A stretch of DNA of 64,000 nucleotides. It comes from Alphaproteobacteria bacterium (lineage in GTDB: Bacteria > Pseudomonadota > Alphaproteobacteria > MPNO01 > UBA830). The stretch lies in assembly GCA_964291215.2 (NCBI GenBank), contig OZ219791.1, positions 3,104,001-3,168,000 on the forward strand, written 5' to 3'. Below, one piece after another: positions 1 through 60,907 of the stretch (the stretch's first letter is position 1; every line of letters begins with the position of its first letter). The translations under genes were made by a program, and so were the position numbers. The notes under the pieces are model-generated. The model saw only the letters and a program-made list of their open reading frames with translations, searched no databases and was not told the origin of the DNA.

Positions 1-97
1 GGAGCGCCAGGCTGCCGAAGAAGGGCTGCTCCCGCAGCAGCGCCGTCACGCAGCGGCTCACCCGCTGCGCCGATTCCGGGCAAGGGCGGGCGGCCAT
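1..97 (-). CDS. N-terminus (partial, runs off window) of putative DUF2201/VWA-associated metallopeptidase
   Basis: ATG at 97-95 overlaps the upstream TGA. Reads MAARPCPESAQRVSRCVTALLREQPFFGSLAL, and this PFFGSLAL-type start is typical of peptidase/VWA genes following MoxR-like ATPases. Confidence 0.55.
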   Translation of the reverse strand, partial: MAARPCPESAQRVSRCVTALLREQPFFGSLAL

Positions 98-989
98 CAC
101 GCGGCCTCCCGCGCCGGGGAGACCGCCGCCGCGAAATATCCCGCGAACCTCTCCACCAGCGCATCCGCATCGCGCTTCACCCGCGCGCGGGCGACCGGAT
201 CGAAACTCTTCGACGGCCTGAGCGCGTCCGGCTCGACGCCGGCGATCTTCTCCTTTACCTGCCCGCAGAGCCGGGCGAGTTCGTCGTCGCCGAAGATATT
301 CAGCCGCGGCACGATGTCGACCAGGTCGCGGATGTTGCCGATCATCGAGTCCCGGAACACCAGCGGCTTGCCCTCGCCGTCCTCCCGCAGGCGTTCGGAG
401 ACCCGCTCCACGGCCTCGCCGAGGCGCCGGTAGAGGTCGCCCACCGCATCGTGCAGCCGCTCCTCCACCTGGCTCTCGATGTCGCGCTTCACCCGGTCGG
501 TGTCGTCGGAGGCGAGCTTCGCCATGAAGTGGTCGGCACCGGGACGATCCGCCAGCGCAGGCCGAACCTGTCCCGGAGCGCCTCCTTCGAGGGATAGTCC
601 CCGATGCGGAACAGCTTGCCGAGATCGAGCCGGGCCTTTTCGATATTGTCGTCATAGTCCTCGATGAAGCGGGCGCGCTCGCGCACCATGCGCTCGCGCA
701 AGCCGTCCATCAGCCCGGTGTAGCGCTCGTGGTTGGCGACGGGGAGCAGCCGGCTCCCCCGGTCGTCCCAGGGCAGGGTCTGGGCGTCGTGGGCCGCGCG
801 CGCCGCGCTGACGGTGGCATTGAGGGCGGCGAAGGCGGTTCGGGGCAGCAGGCACTTGTTGTAGCGCCCGGCGCTGACGCTCGCCTCGTAGTGGACGGCG
901 ACATGGGTGCTGGCCTGGCGGTCATGGAGCCGGCCCGACCAGGCAGCGATGCGCAGGCTGACCAGCATGGCGTCGTGGCTGAGATTCAT
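97..989 (-). pseudogene. DUF3150-like ICE/phage protein, frameshifted near 530
   Basis: SD-led MNLSHDAMLVSLRIAAWSGR...QTLPWDDRGSRLLP (frame of ORF 489..1265) continues in ORF 97..525 (...ERLREDGEGKPLVFRDS...LNIFGD). Confidence 0.6.
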
Positions 990-1011
990 GGGTGTTCTCC
1001 TGAAGGGGCGG

Positions 1012-2004
1012 TCATTGCGTGCGTGCGGCGGCCCAGCGGATGAAGGCGGGCGAGTGCTGGAGGGCGGCGGATGCAGGACCCGACCAGGAACTCGCCGACC
1101 TCGCGGCGCAGCCGTCCGGCATAGGTGACGATGGCGTCGAGCGTGATGTCGTCGGCCATGCGGTAGAGCGCGCCGCAGAGCGCGATCAACGCGCTCGCGT
1201 TGTCCGGCACGACCGCGTTCCCGGGATCGTCGAGCACGGCCCGGGGATGGGGCAGTTCGCGCCACACCTTCAGGAAGGCCGAGAACTCGACCGCCGCCGC
1301 CTCGCCCGCCGTGCCCCGGAACAGCGCCCGCTCGACCGAGGGGTCGGGACCGGCGCGCCGGTTGACGATGCCGGAGACCATCTCCCAGGTGCGGGGGCAG
1401 CAGAACGCCTTCTCCTGCGAATCGAAGCAGTGCAGCAGGTCGGGGCGCATCCGGATGTAGAACAGCACCTGGGGCGCGATGCCGTTGGCCGCCCCCCAGG
1501 CGAGCCAGTCTTCCGCGTCCACCCGGACCTCCAGATGGACGAAGCGCGAGGCGTCGGCATGCGGTGGACCACGCCGCGGTCGCTCTCGCGGTTGCCGCAG
1601 GCGATCAGCGAGGCGCCCTCGGGCAGTTCGTACTCGCCCACCTTGCGGTCGAGCACCAGCTGGTAGAGTGCCGCCTGCACCATCGGCACGGCGGACGGCA
1701 GTTCCTCCAGGTTGATGAGCCAGCGGCCGGGGTCGTCCGCCGGCGGCAGGAAGGCGGGCGGCGCCCAGCGGGTGCGCCTGTCCGCATCGCGCCACGGGAT
1801 GCCGCGCAGGTCCACCGGATCGAGCAGCAGCGCGCGTACGTCGACATAGCTGCGCGAGCCCTCGGCGGCGGCCTGCTGCGCGAGCGCGCTCTTGGCGCAG
1901 CCCGGCGCGCCCCACAGGATGCAGGGCTGGCGCGCCTCGACCAGCAGCGCCAGGGTCGGCGCAAGCTCGCGCAGCGTGTAGTCGGCGGAAACGGTGTCGG
2001 TCAT
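1012..2004 (-). pseudogene. MoxR-like AAA+ ATPase, frameshifted
   Basis: Walker A WGAPGCAKS, DPVDLRGIP, Walker B INLEEL and ACGNRESD. The frame switches near 1555 to ASRFVHLEV...CPRTWE. Confidence 0.8.
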
Positions 2005-2367
2005 CGGCAGCCTCCGGATTGGCGGAAATGCGGCGCGGGCTCCCTCCGGGCGCCCGGCCGTTCACCGAAACCTCCGCGGCCCTTTCCTCATCGTGCCGGG
2101 GGAGCTTGTGCCGGCGCGCCAGGCGGGGGGCCGGCGCAGGACGGGAATGTGCGGTCAGGCGCCGACCGGATCCGCCGGGGTCTTCGAGGTCGCCAGCCAG
2201 GGAAACGCCGGTCGGTTCCGGAAGCGCTTGCCGATGGCAGGATGTCCGGCTTTCGGGCGCGGCGTGTTGAAACCGGCCTGCGGACGGGTTATGGGTTGCA
2301 CCGGCGGGTTCGCTGCGGCCGTGCGGGCGCGGCGCATGCTTGGAATTCGGGACGGGAGGATGAGGTC

Positions 2368-2495
2368 ATGACGCGGATGCCGGGCGATATCGGGATGCAT
2401 GACCTGCGGCTCTCCGGGCGGAGCGCCTCACGCGCGCGCGAACTCGTTGTACCCCCCCCCCCCCCCCCCAAGAGTCAGGGCGCGGGGCTGAGCCG
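2368..2495 (+). other. Out-of-frame 5' leader of the autotransporter (SD + ATG2368)
   Basis: GGGAGGATGAGGTC precedes ATG2368. The frame reads MTRMPGD...RELVVPPPPPP and stops at 2529 unless the C tract changes by +1 or -2. Confidence 0.6.
2452..2469 (+). repeat. C18 homopolymer (candidate slipped-strand phase-variation tract)
   Basis: 18 consecutive C between GTA and AAG. Confidence 0.9.
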
Positions 2496-5400
2496 GTGGG
2501 TGCCCTCGGGAGAACCGCCCGCCGCCTGAAGGCGGGACTCGCTGCCCTCTTCCTCATCACGCTGGCCGCCGCCCTCGCGCCGCAGGACGCGCAGGCGCAA
2601 GTGACCGTTACCCTCACCGCCACGCCGGGGCCGGGGCAGGTGACACTCACATGGACCACTTCTTCGCCGACGCCAGCCGGATTCCTTGTTACAAGACTCT
2701 CTCATAGACCCGCCGGTGGATCCTACCAGAGTAAGACACTGACTAGCGCGAACTCCGGCAGCTACACGCTGACCGGGTTGACACCTGGCACGTCCTACGA
2801 CTTCTTTCTCAGCAATAACTGGTCCGGTCATGGCCAGGTGGATTCGAATACAGTTTCCGCGACCCCGACGGCGGTCACGACGCTCGCCGCCCCGACGGGT
2901 CTGACGGCGACGGGGGCCGGCACCACACAGGTGTTGCTGACGTGGACCAAGCCGGCCGGCACGATCACCGGCTACAAGCTGCGCTACGCCAAGACACCGG
3001 CAAAGGGCAGCGCCACCTGGGCCGCCATGGCGGGTTCGGGCGCGAACACCGTGAGGCACATGGTAACGGGGCTGGAAGACGACGCCGAATACAGTTTCAT
3101 GATCCGCGCCGTGAACGCCTCCGGCGACGGCGCCGCCACGGGCTGGGTGACGGCGACGCCTATGGACAGCTGCCCTTCCGTGCTCAGCCCGACGAACCTG
3201 AGCCTCGCGCCGCGTTCGGACGGGTTTGTCGTCACCTGGACGGCGCCGACCGATGTATTCCGCAACGGCTGGACGTTTTCTTACGGCAAGACCGGGGAAA
3301 GTTCGACTTCTGTCACCATCTCGAATGCCGCCGCGACCAGCCGCACGCTGACCGGCCTGGAGGCCGGCACCGAATACGAGATCAGTCTTACAGCGACCCA
3401 TTCTACTTATAATCCTTCTGCGGTCTGTCCTCCAGGCTTCCGTGTAAAAGCCACCGGCACGACCCTCGCGGCCGCTTCCACGAAGACGATCACCCTGTCG
3501 GCTACCTCGACCTCGATCACCGAGGGCAACACCGGTTCGACGGACGTGACGGTGACCGCCACGCTCGGCGAGGGAGCGCCGGCGGACTTTTCGATCACCC
3601 TTGGTTCTGACATCACCACCGGCACGGCCAAAGGCTCCAACAAGGGGAGCGACCAGTGCACCGCGCCCCTGAACCCGGCGGATACCGACTGGTGCTGGCC
3701 GAACAGTGACGCTTCGGTCTCCATCGCCGCAGGCGAGACCGAGGGCACGAGGACCCTTCGCATTCTCGGCGACACCCGGGACGAGCCGAACGAGACCATC
3801 AAGCTGCTTGGTTACAAGTCCGGCTGGACCGCCGGCAAACTCACTCTGACCATCACCGACGACGACGATCCCCCCACCGTTGCCGTTCCCGCGGCGCCGA
3901 CGGGGTTGTCGGCGGAGGCGGGCAACCGTCAGGTGAAGCTGACGTGGACCGACCCGGACGACGATTCGATCACGAGGTATCGGGTGCAGCAGAGGAAGGG
4001 CAGCGCCGCCTGGGGCAGCTGGACCGCGATTTCCGGTTCGGACGCGGACACCACGACCCACACGGTGACGGGTCTGGACAACGACAGCGAGTACCGCTTC
4101 CGCATCCGGGCGCGGAACAGCGGCGGCAACGGCGCCGCGTCGGCGGTGGTGGAGGCGACGCCGTCGGCGTCGGCAGCGGTTCCCAAGCCGGTGCTGAGCG
4201 CCGAACCGGGTTACGCCAGGGTCACCCTGAGCTGGAGCGCCTTGTCGGGTGTGACGGTTGCGAGCTGGGGCTATCAGTACAAGCCCGCGGGCGGCAGCTG
4301 GATCAGGACCCGGACGGTCACCGGCGGCAGCACGACGAGCACCACGGTGACGGGGCTGACGATCGGCACGGAATACACGTTCCGGCTGTTCGCCGCGGTC
4401 GGTCCCGGTGTGCAGTCGGTGTGGTCGGACCAGGTGAAGGCGACGCCGACGAATACGGTTCCCAAGCCGGTTCTGACGGCGGCCGGAGGCGATGCCTCGG
4501 TCACCCTGAGCTGGAGCGCCTTGACGGGCATTCCGATAACGAGCTGGGGCTACCAGTACAAGAGCACGGGCGGCTGGAACACGACCACGACGGTCACGGG
4601 CAGAAGCAGGACGAGCGTCCGGGTGACGGGGCTGACGAAGGGCACGGACTACACGTTCCGCCTGTTTGCGGCGGTCCGTCCCGGGGTGCAGTCGGTGTGG
4701 TCGGACGAGGTGACGGCGAAGACCGATCCGGCGGCCCCGGTTCTGACGGCGGCGACCTCGACGACGAACGGGCAGATCGACCTGACCTGGACCCATGCCG
4801 GCGGCTCGAACGAGTTGTCGGATGCGGACGACTATGTGAAGGACGCGGCCAAGTTCCATTGGTGGAGAGCGCAGACCCGGCTGAAGGGGGCCAGCACCTG
4901 GACGGATCGCAGTCTCAACCAGGCGAGTGCCAGACAGAACCCGGGCTCTCGCAACAATCGGCTTCTGCTGGACTATCCCGACGGGGCATCGGTCGAGGTC
5001 CGGGTTCGGGCAACGGGCTATCGCATGGCGGGTGTCGCCGGGGGAACGGGCAACCTTCAGGGTCCCTGGTCGAACATTCGTACGGTGACCTTCAAGGACG
5101 ACACCACGGCGGCGCTCACGCTGACCGGGACGCCGGTGACGGTGGCGCCCGGTTCCACGGCGACCTACACGGTGGCGCTGACGAAGGCGTATGCGGGGAC
5201 GCTGCGGGTGACGAGCGATGCCACGGCGGCGGCGCGGGTGAGTCCGGCGAGCCTGACATTTACCACCAGCAACTACAACACGGCGCGGACGGTGACGGTG
5301 ACCGGTGTGGCGAACGGCACGGCGGTGATCAACCACGCTTTCCGGCTGACGGGGGCTTCTGCGGATGCGGTCCCGGATGCGGGCACGGTGGACGTGACGG

Positions 5401-8078
5401 TGGCCGATACGCCGGGGGTGACGGTGTCGACGGCGGCGCTGACGGTGGCGGAAGGGGGCAGCAGGACGTACACGATGCGGCTGAACACGCCGCCATCATC
5501 GGATGTGACGATAACGGTGGCAGGCGCGTCGGGGGACGTGACGGTGGAACCGGCCAGCCTGACCTTCACCCGGACCGACTGGAACCAGCCGCAGACGGTG
5601 ACGGTGAACGCAGGCACGGACACGGACACGAACACGGACCCCGCCGTGACGCTGACCCACGGCGCGTCTGGCGGCGGCTACGGCTCGGTGAGCATCGCCG
5701 ATGTGGTGGTGAGCGTGGCGGAGAAGGATGCGGCGCCGTTGAAGCCGGCCGGCCTTGCCGGCGCGGCGGGCAGCGGCTCGGTGACGCTGAGCTGGACCGA
5801 CCCGGACAACCCGACCATCACGAAGTGGCAGGTGCGGCGGAAGGCCGGCAGCGGCGAGTGGGGCGAGTGGGAGGACATTCCCGGCTCCGGTGCGGGCACC
5901 ACCAGCCACGAGGTGAGCGGTCTGACCAACGGCACCGCCTACCAGTTCGAGGTGCGCGCGGTGAACGGGGCCGGCAACGGGGCGGGTCCGGATGCGCCGG
6001 TGACGGCGACGCCGGTGGCGCCGGCGGCGCCGCCGTCCGGCGGAGGCGGCGGCGGCGGCGGCGGTACGACCCCCGCCGGAAGCGTGACGGTGACGCCGAC
6101 CGCGCTGACGGTGGCGGAGGGCAGCAGTGCGGCCTACACGGTGGTGCTGGACGCGGAACCCTCGGGCGATGTCACGGTGACGGTGGGCGGCGCGTCGGGC
6201 GACGTGACGGTGGAACCGGCCAGCCTGACCTTCACGACAACCAACTGGGACACGGCGCAGACGGTGACGGTGCGCGCGGCCCGTGACGAGGACACGACCG
6301 ACGACACGGCGACGCTGACCCACGGCGCCTCGGGCGGCGGCTACGGTTCGGTGACCATCGATTCGGTGGCGGTGACGGTGACCGACACGACGCTGTTGCC
6401 GGTGCTGACGCTGGCGCAGGATCCTGCGGCGGTGACCGAGGGCGACGACATCCGCCTCGCGGTGACCGCCGACCGGGCGCTGACGGGCAGCCTGACGGTC
6501 AGCCTGACGCTGTCGGCGCGCAACGCAAGCGGCTTCGATGCCGGTGACGTTCCGGGCGGTCTGGGGCCGCGTTCGTTCGATGCGGTGTTCGGCGCCGCGG
6601 CGCGCACCACGGGGGTGGTGACGATCCCGACCGCGGCCGATGCGGATACGGAGGGGACGGAAGCCTACCGCATCACGCTGAACGACGGTGCGGACTACGC
6701 GGTGGGGAGCGACGCGACGGCTGCGGGCGTGCTGCGCGACCGGGGTTCCGCGGCGCGGGCGAACCGGGTGAATGCGGCGGTGCTGCCGCATGTGGCGGCG
6801 GCGGCGATGTCGCAGACCCTGGGGGCGGTGACGGGTCGCATCGAGGCGGCCGGCAGGCCGGGCAGCTCGCTGCGGTTCGGCGCCCTGCCGCCGGTGGAGG
6901 ACGAGTGGGCGTCGCCGCGCCCGGAGGAGCCGACGCTGAGCGAGATGCTGGACGGGGCGTCCTTCACGCTGGCGGCGGGCGCCGGGGAGGACGGGGCATC
7001 CGCGCCGCCGTTGGCGGTGTGGGGCCGGGGCGAGTGGCTGTCGCTGTCGGGTTCGGAGAAGGATGTCACCTGGGACGGCGGCCTGTGGTCGGCGCAGCTG
7101 GGGGCGGACCTGCGGGTGCGCCCGGACCTGCTGGCCGGGGCGGCGCTCTCCCATGCGCGGGGCGAGCTGGACACGCAGACGGGCGGGGTGAAGGGCGTGC
7201 ACGAGACCACGATCACGTCGGTGCACCCCTATGCGGCGTGGCTGGCGCCGGACGGCTCGACCCTGTGGGCGAGCCTCGGCTACGGGACCGGCGAGGTGCG
7301 GATTACCGAGGAAGGCGCGGCGGCGCGCAGCGCCGGGCTGACGCATTGGAGCGTGTCTGCGGGCGGGCGCAGCGTCCTGGCCGAGGATGCAGAGCTGATC
7401 GAGGGCGGGATGACGCGCCTTGCGGTGAAGGGCGAGGGTTCGGCGGCGCGTCTGCGCACGGAGGCCGATGACGGTCTGGAGGGGCTGACGGCGAAGACGA
7501 CGCGGCTGCTGCTGGAGGGGTCGTACGAGCACGCGCTGGCGGGCGGTGCGACGCTGACGCCGGCGCTGGAGGCGGGGGTGCGCCATGACGGCGGCGTTGG
7601 CGAAGGGGCGGGCCTCGAGGCCGGGGCGGGCGTGACCTGGCGGGACCCGGCGGCGGGTCTGACGGCGGAGCTGCGCGCGCGGCTCCTGGCGGCGCACGAG
7701 GCGGAGCGCGACGAGTGGGGGGTGAGCGCGCTTGTGCGCCTCGACCCCGGGGCCGACGGGCGCGGGACGTTCCTCGCCTTCGGTCCCGCGCACGGGCGCA
7801 CGGAGAGCGGCCTCGGGCAGCTGTTCGACCTGCCCGCGGCTGCATCCGGCGCGGCAGAGAGCCGTCTGGAGGCGGAGGTGGGCCACGGCTTCGGCCTGCC
7901 CGGTCCGGGGCCGTTGGCGGTGCTCACCCCCTGGGCCGGCTTGAGCCTGGCGGGCGCACGCACCCTGCGGCTCGGTGCGCGCTACCGCCTCGGCGCGGGG
8001 CTGTCTCTCGGCCTCGAGGGCGCGCACCGGCCGGGCCCCGAAGACAGCCTCATGCTGCGCGGCGCGCTCCGCTGGTAG
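2496..8078 (+). CDS. Large adhesin-like autotransporter: signal peptide, multiple fibronectin type III and Calx-beta-like repeats, Gly linker, C-terminal beta-barrel
   Basis: Signal ...LAALFLITLAAALAPQDAQA. Repeated VTLSW...VTGL...Y.F.(I/V)RA.N FN3 motifs, LTITDDD Calx-beta ends, barrel LAVWGRG...PYAAW...LTPALEAGVRHDGG, and terminal aromatic W. Confidence 0.9.
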   Translation: MGALGRTARRLKAGLAALFLITLAAALAPQDAQAQVTVTLTATPGPGQVTLTWTTSSPTPAGFLVTRLSHRPAGGSYQSKTLTSANSGSYTLTGLTPGTSYDFFLSNNWSGHGQVDSNTVSATPTAVTTLAAPTGLTATGAGTTQVLLTWTKPAGTITGYKLRYAKTPAKGSATWAAMAGSGANTVRHMVTGLEDDAEYSFMIRAVNASGDGAATGWVTATPMDSCPSVLSPTNLSLAPRSDGFVVTWTAPTDVFRNGWTFSYGKTGESSTSVTISNAAATSRTLTGLEAGTEYEISLTATHSTYNPSAVCPPGFRVKATGTTLAAASTKTITLSATSTSITEGNTGSTDVTVTATLGEGAPADFSITLGSDITTGTAKGSNKGSDQCTAPLNPADTDWCWPNSDASVSIAAGETEGTRTLRILGDTRDEPNETIKLLGYKSGWTAGKLTLTITDDDDPPTVAVPAAPTGLSAEAGNRQVKLTWTDPDDDSITRYRVQQRKGSAAWGSWTAISGSDADTTTHTVTGLDNDSEYRFRIRARNSGGNGAASAVVEATPSASAAVPKPVLSAEPGYARVTLSWSALSGVTVASWGYQYKPAGGSWIRTRTVTGGSTTSTTVTGLTIGTEYTFRLFAAVGPGVQSVWSDQVKATPTNTVPKPVLTAAGGDASVTLSWSALTGIPITSWGYQYKSTGGWNTTTTVTGRSRTSVRVTGLTKGTDYTFRLFAAVRPGVQSVWSDEVTAKTDPAAPVLTAATSTTNGQIDLTWTHAGGSNELSDADDYVKDAAKFHWWRAQTRLKGASTWTDRSLNQASARQNPGSRNNRLLLDYPDGASVEVRVRATGYRMAGVAGGTGNLQGPWSNIRTVTFKDDTTAALTLTGTPVTVAPGSTATYTVALTKAYAGTLRVTSDATAAARVSPASLTFTTSNYNTARTVTVTGVANGTAVINHAFRLTGASADAVPDAGTVDVTVADTPGVTVSTAALTVAEGGSRTYTMRLNTPPSSDVTITVAGASGDVTVEPASLTFTRTDWNQPQTVTVNAGTDTDTNTDPAVTLTHGASGGGYGSVSIADVVVSVAEKDAAPLKPAGLAGAAGSGSVTLSWTDPDNPTITKWQVRRKAGSGEWGEWEDIPGSGAGTTSHEVSGLTNGTAYQFEVRAVNGAGNGAGPDAPVTATPVAPAAPPSGGGGGGGGGTTPAGSVTVTPTALTVAEGSSAAYTVVLDAEPSGDVTVTVGGASGDVTVEPASLTFTTTNWDTAQTVTVRAARDEDTTDDTATLTHGASGGGYGSVTIDSVAVTVTDTTLLPVLTLAQDPAAVTEGDDIRLAVTADRALTGSLTVSLTLSARNASGFDAGDVPGGLGPRSFDAVFGAAARTTGVVTIPTAADADTEGTEAYRITLNDGADYAVGSDATAAGVLRDRGSAARANRVNAAVLPHVAAAAMSQTLGAVTGRIEAAGRPGSSLRFGALPPVEDEWASPRPEEPTLSEMLDGASFTLAAGAGEDGASAPPLAVWGRGEWLSLSGSEKDVTWDGGLWSAQLGADLRVRPDLLAGAALSHARGELDTQTGGVKGVHETTITSVHPYAAWLAPDGSTLWASLGYGTGEVRITEEGAAARSAGLTHWSVSAGGRSVLAEDAELIEGGMTRLAVKGEGSAARLRTEADDGLEGLTAKTTRLLLEGSYEHALAGGATLTPALEAGVRHDGGVGEGAGLEAGAGVTWRDPAAGLTAELRARLLAAHEAERDEWGVSALVRLDPGADGRGTFLAFGPAHGRTESGLGQLFDLPAAASGAAESRLEAEVGHGFGLPGPGPLAVLTPWAGLSLAGARTLRLGARYRLGAGLSLGLEGAHRPGPEDSLMLRGALRW
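4179..4722 (+). repeat. Tandem duplication of an FN3 module within the autotransporter
   Basis: Two ~280-bp units begin GTTCCCAAGCCGGT and encode VPKPVL...VTLSWSAL.G...SWGYQYK...YTFRLFAAV.PGVQSVWSD. Confidence 0.85.
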
Positions 8079-8334
8079 GAAAACACCCGGCGTGTCCTGC
8101 CGATGGCGCAGGACAGGGGCCGCCGCCCCGGCCGTGACAGGGAGGCCGCGCCGCTCTCGGGAAGGCCCGCGCCGTGTGTTGACCATGACTCTTCTTTTGT
8201 CCGGTTTCGTCCGACGAGGGGGCGTTGTAGGCAGATCTGGAGGTCCATTCGGGAGCGGATTTCGTTGTCGATATGCCGGTTCCGACCTTGAGACGGTGCC
8301 ACCAACTTCAAGAACGGCCACTCTGACACCAAGG

Positions 8335-8554
8335 TGATCCCATGCTTGTTGATGTGATGTGATCGGAGTCCTGATCGCGGCGCGGGTCGACGCGTTCGAG
8401 GCTGCGATTTTGAGATTTGCTGACGCGCTGTTGCGGCGCGGGGCGCGATTGGTCGGCATATCCGGGGCGAGCGAGAGGCCTGCCGGGTTTAGTTGCCGGG
8501 CTCGAAAGCTTGCGGTTTCTGTCGGGGAGAGAGGCGCGGTCAGCCGGGTCTCGT
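8335..8554. repeat. Long inverted repeat, left copy
   Basis: Reverse complement of 10219-10457 with scattered substitutions and short deletions. Confidence 0.9.
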
Positions 8555-10218
8555 GATTGCGTGCAGGACCTGCTTGCGCTTGTCAGCATAGTGGCGTCGA
8601 CGAAGCTGTTGAAGGGTTTGGGCAGCTTGCGTTTGTTGCGGATGATGATTGCGAGGGTGATCGCGTTGTTTGCGGGCGCGTTCGGAGCATGGAGTCGTCT
8701 TCGCGGAAGGTGGCGTCGCGGACATGATGATGGCTCTCGACTACCCAGTGTCCGCGATTCCATGCGAGCAGCTGTTGCGGCGAGGCGCGCTTGACCGAAG
8801 TCATGGCGTATTCGGTTGTCCGTTTTCCGGATTTCTTGAATTCGACGCGCCGGGTGACGCGGAAGATCTGCTTGACTAGTTGATCATCTTCGCCAGCGGG
8901 GTGAAGATGGTGCGCTGGCGGCCATGCGCGGGCTTTTCGTTGTAGCGCTGGCGGTCTTCCAGTTGATGCTCTCTCGAAGGTGCGTTGCCCTTGACCATCA
9001 GTCCGCGCGATGGGTCTCGATGATCAGCCTCGCGGGTGGTGTGGAGCGCGTCGAGGGTGAGCAGACGGCCGGCGCCGTCGCGGCGTGGACGGCACGATCT
9101 CCCCGTCGTGATAGTTGAGGATCGAATACCGGCCAGCGAGACCGTCTCGTAATGATCCTCGCCGGTGCGCTTGCCGTCGACCGCGTTGCCGACCTGCGGC
9201 TGCGCGCCGCATCCTCGATCCATCCCGGGTCGGTGTTCTGCAGCACCCGGTGCACGGTGGAGACCGGCTTGTCCCTGTTCTTCCATGCTGCTCCAGCTCC
9301 TTCTGCGTCGTAGTGCGCCGCCGCAACCGTGCCGGTTCGCAAGCCAGCAAAATCACGCACAGCACCGAGGCGATGCCCCTGCGCGCGCCGGAAAGCGCCG
9401 CTGATAAATCGAGCGCAATTCCTGCGCCGACCAGCGGCGCCCGCAACTCCCACGCCACAGGAAGCGGCGAACGATCCCGCAGCCGGCATCGCGACGCAGC
9501 GGAAACACGTAAAGATCCTTCGCCTCCCCGGTCGGTATAGCGCCCGCTGGCGCGCGCATAGCTCCTGCCAACGCACTCCCAGTTCGCCGCCTTGTACATG
9601 GTGCCGCTGAACTTCGTCGGCAAGACAAACGACTCCGCAACAAGCAACGGCAGCCTCCCAGTCGCCGCCGCACCATCCGCGACAACGCAAACGAGGCCCG
9701 GAAACGACCACCAAGAACAACAAACCTCGTGTTGTTCCCGGCAACCGCCTGAACTGTTCCTCGCGGCGCCAGCCAACGGGTGCGCAGCTGAGGGCGCCCG
9801 TCTGCCAGCCTGCAGTGCCAATCCACCGCCCGCGCCAAGTGAACACGTAGCGCAGACCTCGACCGGCAAACTGCTTGAAACCAAGATACGGTCAACAACA
9901 CGGTTCCAGCGACATCAGGCCGCGCAAGGCGCACAACCACATCCCGGAGCGCAAAACCCTCCGGAGTCGTCTCAAAAAAATCCGCTGCCCCCACGACAAC
10001 GGATACTACGCCGCTTCACAAAAAGCCAGCGAAAATGCGAATCATCCTGAACAAGCAAAACCGACCCTTCCAACAAACCTAGCGTGGGATCGCCGTGCCC
10101 ACAACCCGTCCACGCGCCGGCAATGCCGCCGGCGACGACCGCGGACGGCCCCGAAGCCAGAAAACCCGGCACGCTGTGAAACCTCCGGACAGCAGAAGAC
10201 AGCAAAATTGAATGCAGC

Positions 10219-12393: not shown

Positions 12394-14033
12394 GAGCGCC
12401 AGGCTAACTGGTAGGATGTCGCCGGGTGAGAGTCCCGGCAGGAAGAGAGGCTAACCACCACTTCCTCCGTGAACCATGCGTCGTGAGGCGAAGCGTTGGG
12501 GAGCGGCAAGCCGGGCTATTGAGCCACGAGAAACTGTGAAACCGGAGTGCCGAGGTCGTGGCCGAAGGCAACACCCTGCGAGCCGCGTTTGGTGAGGCGA
12601 GCAGGGGCTCCGCGGGGTCTGAGAACCATGGCTGAAGCAGGGACCTGGGAGGTCTTGCCCCACTGTCGTAGAGGGGTCGCAGAGGAAAGGAACTATTCCG
12701 TAACCCGATGATGAACGAGAAGTCAGATTCGGCCATAGTACCGTCGAAGGCGGCGAACAAGGGCTCCTCGGAGCCTGCGGAGCTGCTGGAGGGAGAGGAA
12801 ATGCGGTTGACCCGCGCCGCGCGCAGAAGCGGGTCACAGGCGGCGCATACGACAAGTTGCGAAGAGGAATCCGGAAGAGCGTCTTGTGACGTTGCTCCAC
12901 CACGTGATGTCCTGCACGCGGCGTTTCACTCCTTGAGAAAGGACGCGGCAGCGGGCGTGGACGGAGTTACGTGGCACGCGTATGCGGAAGGTGTGGAACT
13001 GGTCGACCTGCCGTGTGCACAGGGGCGGGCGCCTCCGTCGGGTATACATACCCAAAGAGGATGGAGGGCAACGACCGCTCGGCATTGCCTCGCTGGAGGA
13101 CAAGATTCTTCAGCGGGCAGTGACGGACACGATTCTGGTACCGCGAAACGGAGTTCCTCGGGTTCAGTTATGGTTTCCGGCCGGGGCGCACAATGCGCTC
13201 GATGCAGTCACGGTGGAACGGCGGAAGGTCAACCGGATCGTTGACGCCCCTTCGACAACCGCTACCACTTGGTCGCGATGCTCGAGAGACAGATCGGGGG
13301 GTCTGATCATCAAGTGACGCTGGCGTCATGGAGCGACACCGATGCTGGTTCGCCGCAGAGCGCAGCCCCTGTCTGGCGAACGTTTACCTGCACTACGTGA
13401 CTGGTTTCAGAACCATTGGCGCAAACGGATGACTGACACGATCATCGTGCGCTATGCGGATGATTTTGTGTGCGGCTTTCAGTATCAGGGCGATGCGAAG
13501 CGCTGGGACCTCGGGGAGAGGTTGGCTCACTTGAACTGCACCCGGACAATCATCGAGTTCGGTCGGTTTGCGAGAGCGAACCGCCGGAAGCGGGGGCAAG
13601 ACGTTCGACTTCCTCGGTATGACGCACTATTGCGAGCAGACGAGGAAGGGCAAGTTCAGGGTTGGCCGCAAACCATCCCGGAAACGGGCACCCTGCGGCG
13701 GATCAAGGAGGCGTTGCGCAAGCGGTGGCACGACAACCGGCACAAGACGGCCAAGTGGCGAGTGATCAAAGGCTGCTACTACGCCGTTCCGGGAAGCAGT
13801 GAGTCCCTGCAGGGGTTCATATACCAATGCAAACGGCTGCGTGCCCTTCGGCGGCGTTCCCAAAAGGATCGCACCGAATGGAGGGACATGGACACCTTCA
13901 TCGAAGCTTACTGGCCTAAGGCCAGCATCCGTGGCCAAACCAGCGCCTTGTCGTCAGGGGAGGAGCCGGATGCGAACAGCGCAAGTCCGGATCTGTGCGG
14001 GGGGACCGGGGAAACCCGGTTCCCTACCGCGAT
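12394..14033 (+). mobile_element. Group II intron (decayed RT/maturase ORF)
   Basis: 5' GAGCGCCAGGCTAAC. DV/DVI GAGCCGGATGCG...CGCAAGTCCGGATCTGTGCGGGGG...CCCTACCGCGAT. Removing the intron restores the IS1634 frame. Confidence 0.85.
12830..13957 (+). pseudogene. ltrA: Group II intron reverse transcriptase/maturase, multiply frameshifted
   Basis: AAGVDGVTW, RRVYIPKEDGGQRPLGIASLEDKILQRAV, IVRYADDFV, FDFLGMTHYC and RRRSQK occur in different frames. Confidence 0.9.
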
Positions 14034-15409
14034 AGCTTTGCCGCCTCGAAGCCCTGCGGCCAGGAATGGCGTCCTCGGCCCTCTTCCTGCTCTCGCTGAC
14101 CACGCCTCGCCATCCTCGCTGGCGCCTGCACCTCGCGGTTGGTGATCAGCCTCGGGCCCACCCTCGGGCGGCGCCGCCCGCGATCCAGCCGTGCTCGCCA
14201 CGCGATGTTCGCCTCGGTGCCGGCGTCCATGACTGCCGTCGGCTTCGCCGCCCGCCTCCAGCCTCGCCAGCGCATCCGTGCCCGGCCACGTTGCCCGGCA
14301 AGACCTCGTAACTGCGCCGAAAGCCCGCGCCGCGCAAGCGTGGGGCAATCATTGCGCTTCTGCTTCGAGCGCCCGAAGCGGGGGAGCTTGCCGTCGGCGC
14401 GGCCGTGAACATTGGTGAGGTCGCAAAAGGCGATGGTGTCGGGGATGCAGCGCGCGCTCGCGGTTGAACAGCTCCTGGCGGCCCGGTGGCGCAGGTCGCC
14501 GATGCGGTACAGCGTCTTGCGCGCCTTGCGCTCCAGATCCGGAAGCTCCGCGATCGCGCTGTCATCGCGCAGCCGGCGCTCGCTGGCGGATCATCCTGGC
14601 GACGATCAGCGCACTCGTGATGCCGAGGTCGTGAAGCGCCTCGAGGCACAGGCAGCCGACCGAACGCGGGTTCTCGAGGCTGTCGAGGTTGACGGTCGCA
14701 ATTTGCGTGCGTCTTCCTCCGGAGCGTCGGCGCGGAACCTCCGGGCCCCTGTTGACGATGTCCTTGGCTGCGGCCGGCACGCGGCTTCGAACAGCGGCGG
14801 GCGGCCAGCGCTTCGGCGGCAACCTCCTTCCAGTTCTTGCGCGCCACCGGACAGTCGGTACCGAGGCAGGGTGCGCTGTCTGACCTTGTCGCCGATGCGT
14901 TGAGAAAGCACGAGTCGGTGGACGGGTTTGCCGTCTGCGGTGCTGCGGGTTTTGGTTGCCCTGATGAACATGTTGTCTGGAGCCTTTTGTGTTGACGAGG
15001 CTCCGGATATACCGGGTTTGGCGGCGGGGTCGAGCGAATCTGCAATATCCTGGCACTGCACCGGCCATCCCGGGCAGGAAATCGCAAATACTGTGGGAAA
15101 CTGCACATGGAAAACCAGTATATGGTGTTTCGGACGGGGCTGCCGCATCAATTTCGCCTTCAACTGACGCAAAAAGTGCCAACTTGGGAAATGAAATCGT
15201 GCCGGCAGTGAGCTTGGGCAGCCCCAGCGAATGGCCGGGCCGGCAAATTCCACCGGCAGCTGCCCGCGGGCCTGGCAGGACGCGCGAGCTTCGCCTGTAA
15301 GTTGCAAGAAGAGGCGACGGTCCTTAGTATTCGGGTGCGGAAACATTCGTCCGGCTGGGCCTCCTTGTCAGAGACCGCGCCTAGCTTCCAAGAATGATCG
15401 GTATCGCTA

Positions 15410-17071
15410 ATGTCATACCATCGTCCGGTGACGGTGTCGGCCGTCCCTGACCTTCAGACACATCTGAAAGCACTGGACGATGCCGGGCTGCTGTATCGGG
15501 TGGACCGGCCGATAAACAAGGACACCGAGCTCCATCCCCTCGTGCGTTGGCAATATCGTGGCGGAATTTCCGAGGACGCGCGCAAGGCATTCCTCTTTAC
15601 CAGAGTTACGGACAGCCTCGGGCGCGACTACGGGATTCCGGTCGTCGTCGGCGCGCTGGCGGCCAGTCAGGATGTCTATGCCGTCGGAATCGGTGTTCCG
15701 CTCGAGGATATAGGTGCGCGCTGGAATCGGGCCCTTGCCGCGCCCGTCGAGCCCGAGGAGGTCGCGCACGCGCCATGCCAGGAGGTCGTCGTCACCGGCG
15801 ACGACCTCGTCGGGGCGGGGCGAGGCCTCGATGACCTGCCGGTTCCGATATCGACGCCGGGCTTCGATTCTGCCCCCTACATCACCGCCGGGATGGTTGT
15901 GACCCGCGACCCCGATACCGGCGTGCAGAATCTCGGCACCTACCGGGCCGGGCTCAAGGCGTCGAATCGCCTTGCAATCCGCATGGCGACGCGCGCAGGC
16001 GGCGCGGGCGGCTATCTGCATTGGGAGAAATACCGGGCACTGGGAGAGCGCATGCCGTGTGCGATCGTCGTCGGCTGCCCGCCGTCCGTCGCCTATACCG
16101 GACCCCAGAAGATCTGGCGCGATGTCGACGAACTTGGAATCGCGGGAGGCCTTGCCGGCGCTCCGATCCCGGTCGTGTCCTGCCAGACCGTCGATCTCAG
16201 GGTGCCCGCCCAGTCGGAAATCGTGATCGAGGGGATGATCGACACCCGCTATCTCGAGCCCGAGGCGCCCTTCGGGGAATCGCACGGGCATATCGCGCTC
16301 GAGGATTTCAACATGGTGCTCGACGTGACCGCGATCACGCACAAGGCGAACCCCGTCTTCTGTTCGATCATCAGCCAGGTAACCCCGTCCGAATCAAGCG
16401 TCATCAAGCGTGTCGCCTACGAACCGATGTTCCTCGTTCACATTCGCGATCATCTCGGCGTGAAGGCAATCCGCGGAGTTCACATGCACGAGCCGCTGAC
16501 CAACCTGCGCCGGGTCATCTTTCTCCGCATGGCGCCAGGTGCCCCGAGGACCGAAATCTGGCGCGCCCTCTATGGCGCAGCCAGCCTGCGCGCGGATTGC
16601 GGAAAGTATGTCATTGCGGTAAATGAGGACATTGAGCCGGACAATGCGGACGCGGTATTCTGGTCGCTGGCCTACCGGGCGGATCCCGACCGGGATGTCG
16701 AAGTCCTTCGCCACCGGGATGCTGGCCATGGCCCCAAGGGTGCGGGCGGCAGCCGTCCCGAGGAATCGACATTACTGATTGACGCTACCCTGAAGCAGGA
16801 AACCGCGCCTCTTGCGCTGCCGAAACGCGAATACATGGAGCGCGCACGCGAGATCTGGGACGAGTTGGGCCTGCCGCAACTTGTGCCCGAAACCCCGTGG
16901 CACGGATACAGCCTGGGCGACTGGAGCGACGAGTGGGACCGGCTGGCCGAGCGGGCGGCAGAGGGGCGCTACCTCGAGAACGGCCGGCGGAGCGCCCAGC
17001 GCCGCCGCGCCGGTATCAAGCCCAATACCCATGTCCGGTCCGTTGAGGACTGGGACGAATTCGACGATTAG
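15410..17071 (+). CDS. UbiD-family (prFMN-dependent) (de)carboxylase, paralogue 1
   Basis: DLPVPISTPGFD.APYIT, QNLGTYR, VPAQSEIVIEG, EAPFGE and LLIDAT. Confidence 0.92.
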   Translation: MSYHRPVTVSAVPDLQTHLKALDDAGLLYRVDRPINKDTELHPLVRWQYRGGISEDARKAFLFTRVTDSLGRDYGIPVVVGALAASQDVYAVGIGVPLEDIGARWNRALAAPVEPEEVAHAPCQEVVVTGDDLVGAGRGLDDLPVPISTPGFDSAPYITAGMVVTRDPDTGVQNLGTYRAGLKASNRLAIRMATRAGGAGGYLHWEKYRALGERMPCAIVVGCPPSVAYTGPQKIWRDVDELGIAGGLAGAPIPVVSCQTVDLRVPAQSEIVIEGMIDTRYLEPEAPFGESHGHIALEDFNMVLDVTAITHKANPVFCSIISQVTPSESSVIKRVAYEPMFLVHIRDHLGVKAIRGVHMHEPLTNLRRVIFLRMAPGAPRTEIWRALYGAASLRADCGKYVIAVNEDIEPDNADAVFWSLAYRADPDRDVEVLRHRDAGHGPKGAGGSRPEESTLLIDATLKQETAPLALPKREYMERAREIWDELGLPQLVPETPWHGYSLGDWSDEWDRLAERAAEGRYLENGRRSAQRRRAGIKPNTHVRSVEDWDEFDD

Positions 17072-17088
17072 GATGAGGAGCAAGCGCA

Positions 17089-18822
17089 ATGGCGGTCAGA
17101 TTCGCAGAAGCCGAGGCACGGGCGCGAGGCTATACCGATCTTCACGAACATATCGAAGAACTGCGTCGGCAGGGGCTCCTGATCGAGATCGACCGGAAAA
17201 TCAACAAGGATACCGAGATGCATCCGCTGGTCCGCTGGCAGTTCCGCGGCGGCATCGCAGAGGAGGACCGGAAAGCATTCCTGTTCACCAACATCACCGA
17301 TGCCCGGGGCCGCAAGTTCGACATTCCCGTTCTCGTATGCGGCCTTGCCGGCAACCGCGCCATCTACCGGACCGGCATCGGCTGCAAACTCAGCGAAATC
17401 AAGGACACATGGATCCGTGCCATCGGCAATCCGATCGCGCCGCGCGTGGTCGATAGTGTGGATGCTCCGTGCCACGAGATTGTCCACCAGGGTGAGGATC
17501 TGGTCAACGGGCATGGGCTCGACGCCATTCCGGTGCCTATCTCCTCGCCTGGATGGGATAACGCGCCCTACTTCTCGTCGTCACACTTCATCACCAAGGA
17601 TCCGGGCACCGGCGTCCAGAACATGGGCAACTACCGGGGCATGATCAAGGCGCCGACGCGGCTCGGCATGAACCCGTCCACGGAACTGCGTACCGGCGGC
17701 TACATGCACTGGCTTGAATGGAAAAAGCTCGGCAAGCCGATGCCCGCGGCCGTCGTTGTCGGCGCGCCGCCCGTGGTCTCGTTCACCGCCGTCCAGAAGG
17801 TTCCCGAGGCCATCGACGAACTCGCGGTGTCTGGCGGGCTGGCCGGCGCGCCGCTCAACGTTGTCGCCTGCAAGACGGTGGATCTCATGGTGCCGGCGGA
17901 ATCGGAGATCGTGATCGAGGGCTACATCAGCACCGAAATGCTCGAGCCCGAGGCACCGTTCGGCGAGTCCCACGGCCATGTCAATCTCCAAGAATACAAT
18001 GCCTACATGGATGTCACCGCGATCACCCGTCGCAGCGACGCCGTCATGACGTCGTGGGTAAGTCAGGTCACCCCGTCGGAATCGAGTACGATCAAGCGCC
18101 CCGCCTACGAGGCCCGGCAGATCGAGCATCTCCGGGATCACCTCGGAATCAAGGGAATACGGCACGTGGCGACGCATGAACCGCTGACGTCGCTCCACAA
18201 ACTCATCATCGTCGTCGTCGAGCGCGGCATTCCGCGCACCGAGATCTGGCGCGCCCTCTACGGCGTAGCGTCGCTGCGTCAGGCAGAAGGCAAGTGGATC
18301 ATCGCCGTCAATGAGGATATCGATCCCGACGACACCGACGCCGTGTTCTGGGCGATGTCCTACAGATGCAAGCCTCACAACGATGTCGAGATTCTCAAAC
18401 ACAAGCACGAGGGGCACGGCCCGCGCAGTCTGCTCGATTCCGAAGACAGCGCGGTGCTCATAGACGCCACCCTCAAGGAGAATTTTCCGCCGGTGTCGCT
18501 GCCGAAACGCGAGTTCATGGAAAAGGCCAAACGCATCTGGGAAGAGCTGGGGCTGCCCAAGCTGACGCCGAAGGCGCCGTGGTTCGGCTACGACCTCGGA
18601 GAGTGGAACAGCGGGCTCGAAGCGATGGCGCGGCGCGCGGTGCACGGCGAGTACTGGACAACCGGCCAGATCATCGCCCAGCACCGCCGCGGCGACGTGC
18701 CGATCAACACCGAAATCCGCACGCTCGACATCGGCAATCCGGGCGCCGGAAGCGAAGGCGAGGAGGCCCTGGAATGGGACGTGCTCGAAGATGCCTCGCA
18801 GGTCCGCGAGACCGATGACTGA
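17089..18822 (+). CDS. UbiD-family (de)carboxylase, paralogue 2
   Basis: QNMGNYR, VPAESEIVIEG, EAPFGESHG and VLIDAT. Confidence 0.92.
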   Translation: MAVRFAEAEARARGYTDLHEHIEELRRQGLLIEIDRKINKDTEMHPLVRWQFRGGIAEEDRKAFLFTNITDARGRKFDIPVLVCGLAGNRAIYRTGIGCKLSEIKDTWIRAIGNPIAPRVVDSVDAPCHEIVHQGEDLVNGHGLDAIPVPISSPGWDNAPYFSSSHFITKDPGTGVQNMGNYRGMIKAPTRLGMNPSTELRTGGYMHWLEWKKLGKPMPAAVVVGAPPVVSFTAVQKVPEAIDELAVSGGLAGAPLNVVACKTVDLMVPAESEIVIEGYISTEMLEPEAPFGESHGHVNLQEYNAYMDVTAITRRSDAVMTSWVSQVTPSESSTIKRPAYEARQIEHLRDHLGIKGIRHVATHEPLTSLHKLIIVVVERGIPRTEIWRALYGVASLRQAEGKWIIAVNEDIDPDDTDAVFWAMSYRCKPHNDVEILKHKHEGHGPRSLLDSEDSAVLIDATLKENFPPVSLPKREFMEKAKRIWEELGLPKLTPKAPWFGYDLGEWNSGLEAMARRAVHGEYWTTGQIIAQHRRGDVPINTEIRTLDIGNPGAGSEGEEALEWDVLEDASQVRETDD

Positions 18823-18852
18823 CGGGTTCACCGCCGCGCACGCCCGGAACGG

Positions 18853-20502
18853 ATGATGGAGCTGGTTTCGATGTCGGATGCCAACGCCCCGCGCGCCTAT
18901 CCCGACCTTCACGATCACCTCAAGGCGCTCGATGAACGCGGCCTCCTCGTGACGGTCGACCGCGAAATGAACAAGGACACCGAGATCCATCCCTTGGTGC
19001 GCTGGCAGTTTCGTGGCGGACTCGAGGAATCCGAACGCAAGGCCTTTCTGTTTACCAATGTCGTCGATTCGGCAGGAAGGCGGTTCGACATCCCGCTCGC
19101 CGTTGGCGTGCTGGCAGCGAACCGGGACATCTACCGCACCGGCATCGGGTGCGAGTTTGACGAGATCGAGAGTACATGGAACCGGGCGGTCTCCGCCCCG
19201 GTCGAGCCGGTCGAGGTTCGCGATGCGCCATGCCAGGAAATCGTGATTGCAGGCGCGGCGCTGGATGCGCCCGGCCAGGGGCTTGACGGCATTCCGGTTC
19301 CGATTTCGACGCCGGGATGGGACAACGCGCCCTATACGACGCTGTCGCAGTACATCACCAAGGATCCCGATACTGGCGTCCAGAACATGGGAAACTATCG
19401 CGGCCAGATCAAGGGGCCGCGGCGGATGGGGATGAATCCGTCCCTCGAACTGCGTCCCGGAATCTATGTTCACTGGGAGAAGTACCGTGACCGCGGCGAG
19501 CGTATGCCGGCCGCGGTGATCCTTGGCGCGCCGCCTGCCGTGACCTTCACCTCTGCGGTCAAGCTGCCCGAGACCGTCGACGAGCTCTATGTAGCTGGTG
19601 CGCTCGCCGGCGCTCCCATAAACGTCGTCCGGGCGAAAACCGTCGATCTCCTGATTCCGGCGGAGGCCGAGATCGTTGTCGAGGGCTACATCGACACCGA
19701 ATATCTCGAGCCCGAGGCGCCGTTCGGCGAGTCCCACGGCCATGTGAACCTGCAGGAATACAATGCCTACATGGACGTGACCTGCATAACCCGCAGGCGG
19801 GATGCGGTGCTGACGTCGATCATCAGCCAGGTGACGCCCTCCGAGTCGTCCCTGATCAAGCGCCTGGCCTACGAGCCGATGTTCACCCGCCATCTTCGGG
19901 ACCATCTCGGCATCAAGGGGGTGATCCGGGTCTCCATGCACGAGCCGCTGACCAACATCCGCAAGCTCATCGTCGTCGTATGCGCGCGCGACATGGCACG
20001 CACCGAGGTCTGGCGGGCGCTCTATGGGGCGGTTTCGCTCCATCGCGCAGCAGGCAAGTACGTGATCGCGGTCAACGACGATATCGATCCGACTGATGCC
20101 GACGCAATCTTCTGGGCCATGGCCTATCGTGCCAATCCGGCACTGGATGTCGAGGTCCTCAAGCATCGCGACCAGGGACACGGGCCCCGAAGCGCGCGCA
20201 ACGGGGGTGAGGACGCGTCGGTGCTGTTCGATGCGACGCTGAAAGAGGAGTTCCCGCCGCTGTCGCTGCCGAAGAAGGAATACATGGATAACGCGCGACG
20301 CATCTGGGACGAGCTCGGCCTGCCGGAGCTCAAGCCCAAGATGCCGTGGTATGGCTATTCGCTCGGCGAGTGGGATGACGAGTTAGAGGTGATGGCGCGC
20401 CGCGCCGTCGCCAGCGACTACTTTACGACCGGGGAGATTATCGCGCAGCGCCGGCGCAGTGATCTCGTCATGAACACGGAGGTGCGGAAGCTCGAGGACT
20501 GA
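18853..20502 (+). CDS. UbiD-family (de)carboxylase, paralogue 3
   Basis: QNMGNYR, IPAEAEIVVEG, EAPFGESHG and VLFDAT. Alternative start at 18871. Confidence 0.92.
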   Translation: MMELVSMSDANAPRAYPDLHDHLKALDERGLLVTVDREMNKDTEIHPLVRWQFRGGLEESERKAFLFTNVVDSAGRRFDIPLAVGVLAANRDIYRTGIGCEFDEIESTWNRAVSAPVEPVEVRDAPCQEIVIAGAALDAPGQGLDGIPVPISTPGWDNAPYTTLSQYITKDPDTGVQNMGNYRGQIKGPRRMGMNPSLELRPGIYVHWEKYRDRGERMPAAVILGAPPAVTFTSAVKLPETVDELYVAGALAGAPINVVRAKTVDLLIPAEAEIVVEGYIDTEYLEPEAPFGESHGHVNLQEYNAYMDVTCITRRRDAVLTSIISQVTPSESSLIKRLAYEPMFTRHLRDHLGIKGVIRVSMHEPLTNIRKLIVVVCARDMARTEVWRALYGAVSLHRAAGKYVIAVNDDIDPTDADAIFWAMAYRANPALDVEVLKHRDQGHGPRSARNGGEDASVLFDATLKEEFPPLSLPKKEYMDNARRIWDELGLPELKPKMPWYGYSLGEWDDELEVMARRAVASDYFTTGEIIAQRRRSDLVMNTEVRKLED

Positions 20503-20628
20503 ACCTGGCGTTGGACATCAGGCGGCGATGGCAGATAATGCGGGTGCTGGGCGTCGTCGTTTGTCCGGCCAGGCCCCGTGAGCAACTGTCGAAGGCGCAA
20601 GGGCTTCGGCGGCGAAGGAAAGGAAGCT

Positions 20629-60391: not shown

Positions 60392-60661
60392 CCCGCGGCC
60401 GCATCCGGCACGGCATCGGCAGAGGCCGGGAGCCGTCTGGAGGCGGAGGTGGGCCACGGGTTCGGCCTTGCCGGTCCGGGGCCGCTGGCGGTGCTCACCC
60501 CCTGGGCGGGCTTGAGCCTGGCGGAGACGGACAGGCGCACCCTGCGCCTCGGCGCGCGCTACCGCCTCGGCGCGTGGCTCTCCCTCGGCCTCGAGGGCGC
60601 GCACCGGCCGGGCCCGGCTCTCGAAGACAGCCTCATGCTGCGCAGCGCGCTGCGATGGTAG
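60392..60661 (+). pseudogene. Orphan copy of the autotransporter 3' end
   Basis: SRLEAEVGHGFGLAGPGPLAVLTPWAGLSL...EDSLMLRSALRW matches 7832-8078. Confidence 0.9.
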
Positions 60662-60663
60662 TG

Positions 60664-60850
60664 TGAGGGCGGCGAACAAGGGAGTGCCAGCTTCTGCGGA
60701 GCCGATGGAGGAAAGGGGCTCGACCGAGGGGAAGCGGAATTGCCAGGCACGCGCGGAACCCAGTGTCGGGAAAGCGTGTACCGAGCGGCAGCGTGGATAC
60801 GAAAAGCTGCAGAGAGAAACCCGAAAGAGCGTTTCACTGCACTCCTCCAG
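60664..60850 (+). mobile_element. Group II intron internal fragment (pre-ORF region and RT N-terminus)
   Basis: GGCGGCGAACAAGGG...TGCGGAGC..TGGAG resembles 12749-12793, followed by IRKAAERNPKERFTALL. Confidence 0.7.
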
Positions 60851-60907
60851 GGCTCGGTAACGAACCCTCCTGCCCGACCTCCGCGGCAGTGCGCACGGGG
60901 CTGCCGG

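Follow-up and report, generated by a model that had tools for sequence, protein, structure and literature searches.

A poly-C tract in a recurrent leader as a candidate three-setting translational switch for FN3 barrel proteins in an alphaproteobacterium

The stretch analysed here (G000:C2:3104001-3168000, 64,000 nucleotides, hereafter the window) comes from an alphaproteobacterial genome, G000, of 6.15 Mb in two contigs (99.3% complete). Near its beginning lies an open reading frame (ORF) of 1860 amino acids (aa) that opens with a signal peptide, continues through fibronectin type III (FN3) modules and ends in an outer-membrane beta-barrel, and this ORF is preceded by a short leader crossed by a run of 18 cytosines (C18). 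The run may be a three-setting, slippage-driven translational switch of which C18, the present allele, would be the silent setting, a reading that we put forward tentatively and with somewhat less than even confidence. The narrower claim that C18 is an off setting, to which this model and a simpler two-state model both contribute, is probable, and under these two leading models C18 is the least expressible setting. A first-pass annotation had described the gene as being in the OFF state; the C18 allele probably fits that description, and this copy may be off in the population too.

In the proposed mechanism, ribosomes would start at a Shine-Dalgarno (SD)-led ATG at position 2368, as its SD strength, codon usage and conservation suggest, and replication slippage would alter the number of Cs, as length variation among copies suggests. 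With C16 or C19, the first setting, the leader would be fused in frame to the ORF, giving a signal peptide of about 77 aa with predicted export, and such alleles occur naturally in homologs. With C17 or C20, the second setting, the leader would end 4 nt before GTG2496, where re-initiation would yield the normal 34-aa signal peptide. With C18, the third, the leader would pass GTG2496 and stop 34 nt beyond it, outside the re-initiation range in the literature, so the yield of protein would be low. Sequence settles the frames and spacings, the conservation and the counts, and from them we infer translation from either start, slippage at the locus, export of the extended form and adhesion.

Leader, tract and reading frames

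The leader, like the ORF and all the elements between them, lies on the forward strand. Its SD region at 2354-2366 (GGGAGG at 2354-2359 and GAGGT at 2362-2366) pairs with the 3' end of the genome's own 16S rRNA at -12.4 kcal/mol, a value reached by 0.2% of 3000 random 17-mers. From ATG2368 the frame runs through a (CG)5 repeat at 2431-2440, directly before the tract and differing among homologs in length and in 6-nt units, enters C18 (2452-2469) 84 nt after the ATG, crosses it and ends at TGA2527-2529, so that the leader of the C18 allele (2368-2529) encodes 53 aa. The purine-rich motifs, the frame through the tract and the stop at 2529 are thus all seen in the sequence as first described. The long ORF (2496-8078) is shut upstream in its own frame by TGA2400 and, as had been claimed, is out of frame with the SD-led ATG. 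Only one C more or two Cs fewer joins the leader to it, in agreement with the lengths C19 and C16 given earlier, and four other genomes hold natural in-frame full-length ORFs (2223, 1846, 1914 and 1602 aa) alongside two further in-frame alleles that are truncated. With out-of-frame stops at 2489-2491 and 2527-2529, tract length sets the frame, and all three states are found among the homologs.

SD strength, codon usage and conservation together make the leader look translated from ATG2368. At the locus the codon-usage score is +1.9 for the ATG frame against -16.9 and -20.3 for the other two, and the ATG frame scores best in 43 of 46 homologs, stops being excluded from the score; it is uninterrupted up to the tract in 44 of 46. 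A motif search recovered a purine-rich SD-led ATG in 46 of 47 homologous leaders, a set that leaves aside a truncated twelfth G000 copy and the divergent leader L126. The linker behind the tract (2470-2495), which contains TGA2489-2491, is open in the ORF frame in all 47, and the stop is kept in all 47 as well.

Two other roles for the tract were considered and rejected. A promoter-spacer role is not borne out by the region 1900-2700, where no sigma-70-like site or terminator was found, and the tract follows the SD-led ATG; as for RNA structure, positions 2445-2515 fold no better than shuffled sequences (z=+1.46). The length of 18 was read from the assembly; the sequence runs of one study (n=4) are contigs that mix paralogs and other organisms, and they yielded no distribution of tract lengths specific to this locus.

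Second start, stop spacing and frame states

GTG2496 opens a complete 34-codon Sec-type signal peptide (2496-2597), judged by eye from its basic n-region, hydrophobic core and A-Q-A end, and looks like a coupled second start. The first-pass annotation had credited it with no convincing SD, which holds in so far as the pairing is weak (-7.8 kcal/mol with the same anti-SD, reached by 6.7% of random 17-mers), although a weak SD is present. A GTG stands at the aligned position in all 46 homologs scoring above 80 in the protein alignment, and is absent from L126, a homolog with a weaker score, and from the database protein P0015. In the frame that is one C shorter, a stop lies 4 nt before the GTG in all 47 homologs, with TAG in place of TGA in two G082 copies and with its T kept through an Ala-to-Ile change in L147. 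Re-initiation is described in PMC10666635 for overlaps or very short gaps, spacings of -8 to +10 nt being predictive and the effect nearly lost at about 20 nt. The C17-type spacing of +4 nt falls inside that range and is therefore compatible with re-initiation, whereas the C18 spacing of -34 nt falls outside and by the same range is not; this overlap of 34 nt recurs in 45 of the 47 homologs, the present locus included. A comparable arrangement appears in a wider sample of 16 tract leaders, 12 of which have an in-frame ATG or GTG before the hydrophobic core; an off-frame stop lies within -8 to +10 nt in 11 of those 12, compared with 40% for internal codons, and in a G004 family ATG and GTG alternate at the second-start position. 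Translation from GTG2496 had been named as a result that would refute the switch; since the signal peptide that starts with this codon is complete and the codon itself resembles a coupled second start, its use would instead refine it.

The distribution of frame states also bears on the choice between models. Among 43 of the 47 leaders (one duplicate, two with a stop before the tract and one without an SD-led ATG were dropped), 9 have the leader in frame with the ORF, 23 are one C short of it, like C18, and 11 have one C too many (p=0.018). The in-frame share is below the one third expected by chance, so the existence of in-frame alleles does not prove that the fusion is used, and none of the 11 G000 leaders is in frame (p=0.012). 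As a control, 27 lasso-like precursor genes of genome G026 with tracts of C8-C30, 18 of which have no in-frame start behind the tract, divide into 9 in frame, 7 of the C18 type and 11 other (p=0.64); the C18-type share differs between leaders and control (Fisher p=0.028). At least 27 such small genes occur in G026 (L168-L185), each combining an SD-led start and a C8-C30 tract with a core motif that we take to be lasso-precursor-like; next to the precursors at L170 are two sulfotransferases, an HPr-kinase-like gene and a lasso cyclase-like gene (NF033535, 292 bits, below the 525 cut-off).

These counts tell against a two-state translational phase variation, in which the ATG2368 fusion is the sole source of protein, GTG2496 acts as a plain Val codon and C18 is the off length. 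This alternative is rather unlikely in our estimation: it would have to accommodate the scarcity of in-frame alleles, overall and in G000, and it offers no explanation for the invariant GTG, for the stop kept 4 nt ahead of that codon or for the asymmetry of the out-of-frame states. Everything that points to translation of the leader and to variability of the tract nonetheless applies to it, the most variable linker site changes synonymously or conservatively in the ORF frame (GAG/GAA/GAT, 6 changes), P0015 has no Val at the GTG position, and relatives possess tract leaders without a second start (L223, L240 and most of the lasso-like precursors). Of the original proposal of a phase-variable switch, the apparently translated leader and the hypervariability of the tract among near-identical copies stand, but the fusion may not be the sole on state.

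It is less likely again that GTG2496 works in the C18 allele too, either independently or opened by ribosomes crossing the leader, in which case the gene would not be off and the tract would act as a dimmer or be close to neutral. The complete signal peptide that begins at the GTG speaks for such activity, as do the prevalence of the C18-type state, the commonest of the three, and the intactness of six ORFs in G000 where no leader is in frame. The C18-type frame, moreover, ends in a GTGA or ATGA overlap in L121, L129 and several unrelated leaders. The weak SD at the GTG, the lack of special structure in the GTG region by the folding comparison above and the 34-nt overlap kept in nearly every homolog argue the other way, long overlaps being described as uncoupled in PMC10666635.

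Set against the three-setting reading itself are several further observations. The homologs are related, the 47 leaders representing 8 genomes and the 12 second-start leaders about five families, and the counts overstate independence accordingly. A tree shows 28% of nearby sites to be invariant and one Leu codon to be equally fixed, and the invariance of the GTG by itself is weak evidence (about p=0.02); the in-frame database protein P0015 has Lys at that position. The ATGA/GTGA overlap arises by itself if the second codon begins with A, which is easy at Met-Lys or Met-Thr starts, and the three-class comparison of leaders with the G026 control is not significant (p=0.076). Codon usage in the linker favours the C18-type frame in 38 of 47 homologs, which fits a GTG that works in the C18 allele. 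A second group of leaders in G000, family B, is skewed the opposite way (5 in frame, 3 and 0 in the other states), and an intact ORF is kept in only 6 of the 12 G000 copies of the present family. The whole case is built on contig sequence, from which switching, start-site use and expression are deduced. A string of CCC codons might, besides, slow translation or allow some leakage through ribosomal frameshifting.

The in-frame share also drops with tract length (6/18, 2/12 and 1/13), a further difficulty for the three-setting reading, and one that would be expected from deletion-biased miscalling. Long homopolymers are error-prone in long-read consensus, and if the tract were miscalled, for example one C short, the tract would still be real, but its true allele would be mixed or in frame and the off state an artefact. 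This is very unlikely. In the G000 assembly all 19 filtered coding C/G runs of 7-8 and all 3 of at least 9 (one of them C15) are in frame, a thin control for long runs; the G026 genes, from a different genome and library, have no one-base skew; and the complete genomes of the order (G003, G030, G045 and G038) have 0-12 runs of at least 11 C, so that long runs are not a general artefact. Frame states taken from single assemblies need read-level checks all the same.

The leader family and the background of C runs

Poly-C tracts stand in all 12 leader copies of G000, each with at least 9 C (C9-C33); near-identical leaders carry C18, C19 and C22. In 11 of the 12 the leader is followed by a signal peptide with an FN3 gene, and 6 of these 11 have an ORF that is intact through to the barrel. 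Five paralogs on contig C2 have a common 3' part at >95% identity and differ in their 5' modules. The leader at this locus is duplicated together with an upstream block (1-2353; a divergent, frameshifted AAA-type gene with its neighbours, the AAA_5 match being weak at E 4e-4 and below cut-off), and this 2.4-kb block accompanies the leader at five places in G000, copies of the block elsewhere in the genome having identities of 99.8%, 98.8%, 94.4% and about 96%.

Beyond G000 the leader is present in seven genomes of uncultured bacteria, labelled Alphaproteobacteria (5), Gammaproteobacteria (1) and Ca. Binatia (1), with tracts of C8-C23, one of them interrupted; one of these genomes, G084 (same coordinates as G037), belongs to the window's order. 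Of 30 leader-search matches, 21 were leaders and 9 looked like chance. No leader was found in 25 searched genomes of the same family (4 of the same genus, 3 of those single-contig) or in 60 relatives of G082; viral contigs gave no leader match, and JGI metagenome contigs gave two, neither with a run of at least 7 C nearby. This patchy distribution suggests horizontal transfer of the leader. The broadest form of the proposal, a three-position switch portable across Alphaproteobacteria, Gammaproteobacteria and Binatia on mosaic FN3/immunoglobulin (Ig)-like proteins with 18-stranded autotransporter-like barrels in probably animal-associated bacteria, which would thereby vary eukaryote-like surface proteins much as pathogens do, is doubtful as a whole.

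Poly-C leaders are not restricted to this family. Family B comprises eight related leaders in G000 (C17-C31), situated about 600 nt before a gene for a protein of about 600 aa that resembles a lipoprotein by eye and gave no Pfam match. Leaders of this group, such as L001 and C2:1844805, contain a degenerate signal peptide and a second run of C6-C14 about 300 nt further on, and a unit at G082 L148 resembles a family B leader with a lipoprotein-like gene. Open frames of up to 14,049, 11,901 and 10,471 aa (in G004, G002 and G049) terminate in related barrels, and several of them have unrelated poly-C leaders. In other giant-barrel leader families (G002, G004, G049 and G003), a run of at least 8 C lies near the gene start in 13 of 20 regions, about half of which were chosen because a run was already known there.

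The tracts must be seen against a genome in which C runs are unusually abundant. G000 has 22 C/G runs of at least 18, compared with 0.0007 expected under a first-order Markov model, although at lengths of at least 9 the excess is small (133 seen, 89 expected). Slippage is evidently active, since C6 runs borne on insertion sequences (IS) have grown to 9-23 in 35 of 223 copies, and because long runs also expand in these elements, tract length alone does not show selection. A neutral by-product of this kind, in which C runs expand spontaneously in an eroding genome and the family is decaying, not switching, would account for G000 having the most runs of at least 11 C (102) among 78 genomes of its order, for the IS-borne expansion in a genome whose MutS and MutL frames are open, for the breakage of half the paralogs and for the many upstream 6-8-nt deletions, which recall the deletogenic slippage reported for Ca. 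Sodalis pierantonius (PMC4948707). This, too, is very unlikely. The tract is long in every leader, with at least 9 C in 12 of 12 leaders against 35 of 223 IS-borne runs (Fisher p about 1e-9, the copies being non-independent), and long runs are concentrated at leaders in genomes with few of them, where leaders account for 6/11, 8/23 and 7/23 of all runs of at least 11 C (G084, G079 and G078). The layout of the leader is conserved in three classes or phyla, and unrelated leaders of giant barrel genes and lasso-like precursors have tracts at the same place.

Loss of mismatch repair was considered as a cause of the expansion and rejected, the MutS_V and MutL_C matches lying in open frames of 981 and 670 aa. 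Several other observations concern the same runs and the surrounding DNA. The upstream block differs from its sister copy by several discrete 6-8-nt deletions outside homopolymers, common to two further copies (window 1-2400), and an IS-like repeat downstream (window 8330-10100) exists in dozens of copies with many small gaps; the small deletions in both regions suggest deletion-prone erosion. G083 has 92 runs of exactly C9, with 2 each in G084 and G081, and its own leaders have C9-C10, which points either to a cap set by assembly or to an equilibrium length particular to that genome. A G000 element with C6-type ends adjoining CTAG occurs 172 times, often back to back, with 24 ends grown to C9-C17, and two transposase starts, presumably of the IS1634 type, carry expanded C runs. 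The motif TTGACT, a C13-C15 run and TATTGT (spacers of 16-20 nt) occur together at G000 C1:1121776, C2:37038, C2:921828 and C2:2939169, just after FN3 genes and before a gene with RTX repeats (PF00353), forming a possible promoter-spacer switch; the matching place in the window (about 8175) is interrupted by an IS-like repeat.

The barrel protein, known systems and significance

The passenger of the 1860-aa protein (2598-6749) consists of FN3 and other Ig-like modules, with seven stretches matching PF00041 (E 6e-67), and is followed by a linker helix and an autotransporter-related outer-membrane beta-barrel ending in Trp (6750-8078). The C-terminal part matches PF03797 at 35.3 bits (cut-off 26) over profile positions 3-120 of 255, and TIGR01414 at 23.3 bits (cut-off 16), both partially, and Atlas feature hits stand at 0.96. 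An AlphaFold2 model of the last 442 aa, built on a 51-sequence alignment (pLDDT 83.8), has a helix at model residues 2-34, 18 strands counted from the secondary structure of the predicted model, and the terminal Trp. Its best structural matches by VIA-align are EstA, AIDA-I and NalP (Z 16.8-17.0 over model residues 1-364), autotransporters overall reaching Z 16.5-17.0 with an rmsd of 3.3-5.5 over 227-264 aligned residues and a model range that ends at 352-364; maltoporin and OpdQ align over model residues 84-442 with Z about 13. Foldseek returned weak barrel matches only, PDB sequences searched with the alignment of the barrel yielded Calx-beta relatives only, an internal duplication of the barrel has a weak match only (57%, 31 columns), and the Pfam motif of the extended signal peptide region (ESPR) had no hit in the leader or in four natural in-frame proteins.

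The barrel of classical type Va autotransporters has 12 strands. Like EstA, AIDA-I, NalP and Hbp, the present protein combines signal peptide, passenger, linker helix, C-terminal barrel and a terminal aromatic residue; unlike them, it is covered by PF03797 over the first half of the profile only and is modelled with 18 strands. The barrel is thus predicted to be 18-stranded and the protein, on that count, not a canonical type Va member, although it probably works like an autotransporter; the name first given to it calls for a qualification in view of the predicted strand number. An adhesin role for the protein and a host association of protein and bacterium we infer, the latter because FN3/cadherin autotransporter-domain proteins are known from the sponge symbiont Ca. 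Synechococcus feldmannii (PMC6506613, a paper whose main text nowhere uses the terms 'phase variation' or 'homopolymer').

Most known cases of homopolymer phase variation come from pathogens. NalP and AusI/MspA of Neisseria meningitidis are autotransporters with a coding poly-C tract, for which, according to PMC5472700, one third in frame is expected under random switching. The present gene likewise has poly-C in the coding region of an autotransporter-like protein, but differs from that description in having the tract in a separate SD-led leader, behind which a signal peptide, complete in itself, opens with a conserved GTG; its leader is also repeated throughout a family of paralogs and in more than one phylum, and its switching is putative. 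The PmpG subfamily of Chlamydia, as described in bioRxiv 10.1101/506121, resembles the present family in expanded autotransporter paralogs, polyG/C length variation, frameshifts, probable gene conversion and pseudogenisation, and differs in having Pmp repeats instead of FN3/Ig passengers, and in the one shared leader cassette, likely second start and predicted 18-strand barrel found here. The spacings of +4 nt (C17) or, in some homologs with GTGA/ATGA, -4 nt lie within the -8 to +10 nt known for termination-reinitiation coupling, but here the stop-start spacing would be set by a slipping tract, unlike the coupling described in PMC10666635; a literature search for such an arrangement found none. 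Nor was any report of this leader, of homopolymer switches in sponge-type symbionts or of an 18-stranded autotransporter barrel found in the full-text literature, a search mostly outside subscription papers. Homopolymer phase variation being already known, the present case stands apart by a leader that is shared and portable, by a second start that is probably coupled to it and by the width of the barrel.

Elsewhere in the window, positions 12429-12627 match group II intron domains D1-D4 (RF02005, the only Rfam match), followed at about 12700-14150 by a fragmented reverse-transcriptase-like reading frame, recognised by eye and with no Pfam hit. Three tandem UbiD-family genes and then a TPP-dependent enzyme occupy 15410-22443. 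On the minus strand at 60400-62800, remnants of an FN3/barrel gene (G9 at 62750-62758 and a barrel fragment near 60400) surround a phage-type integrase.

If the three-setting reading is correct, FN3-rich uncultured bacteria would switch such 'eukaryote-like' surface proteins stochastically through one shared leader, and the on/off picture would gain a third state from a tract that selects fusion, re-initiation or silence. Gene callers start such genes at the GTG and hide the switch: among 37 database protein matches, 21 start there and 16 carry an upstream extension. For proteins as costly as these, with about 2000 aa, silence would be the preferred default, and about a dozen mosaic paralogs switching independently could give each cell a varied adhesin-like display. 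The leader would then offer a testable handle on how FN3 surface proteins are deployed.

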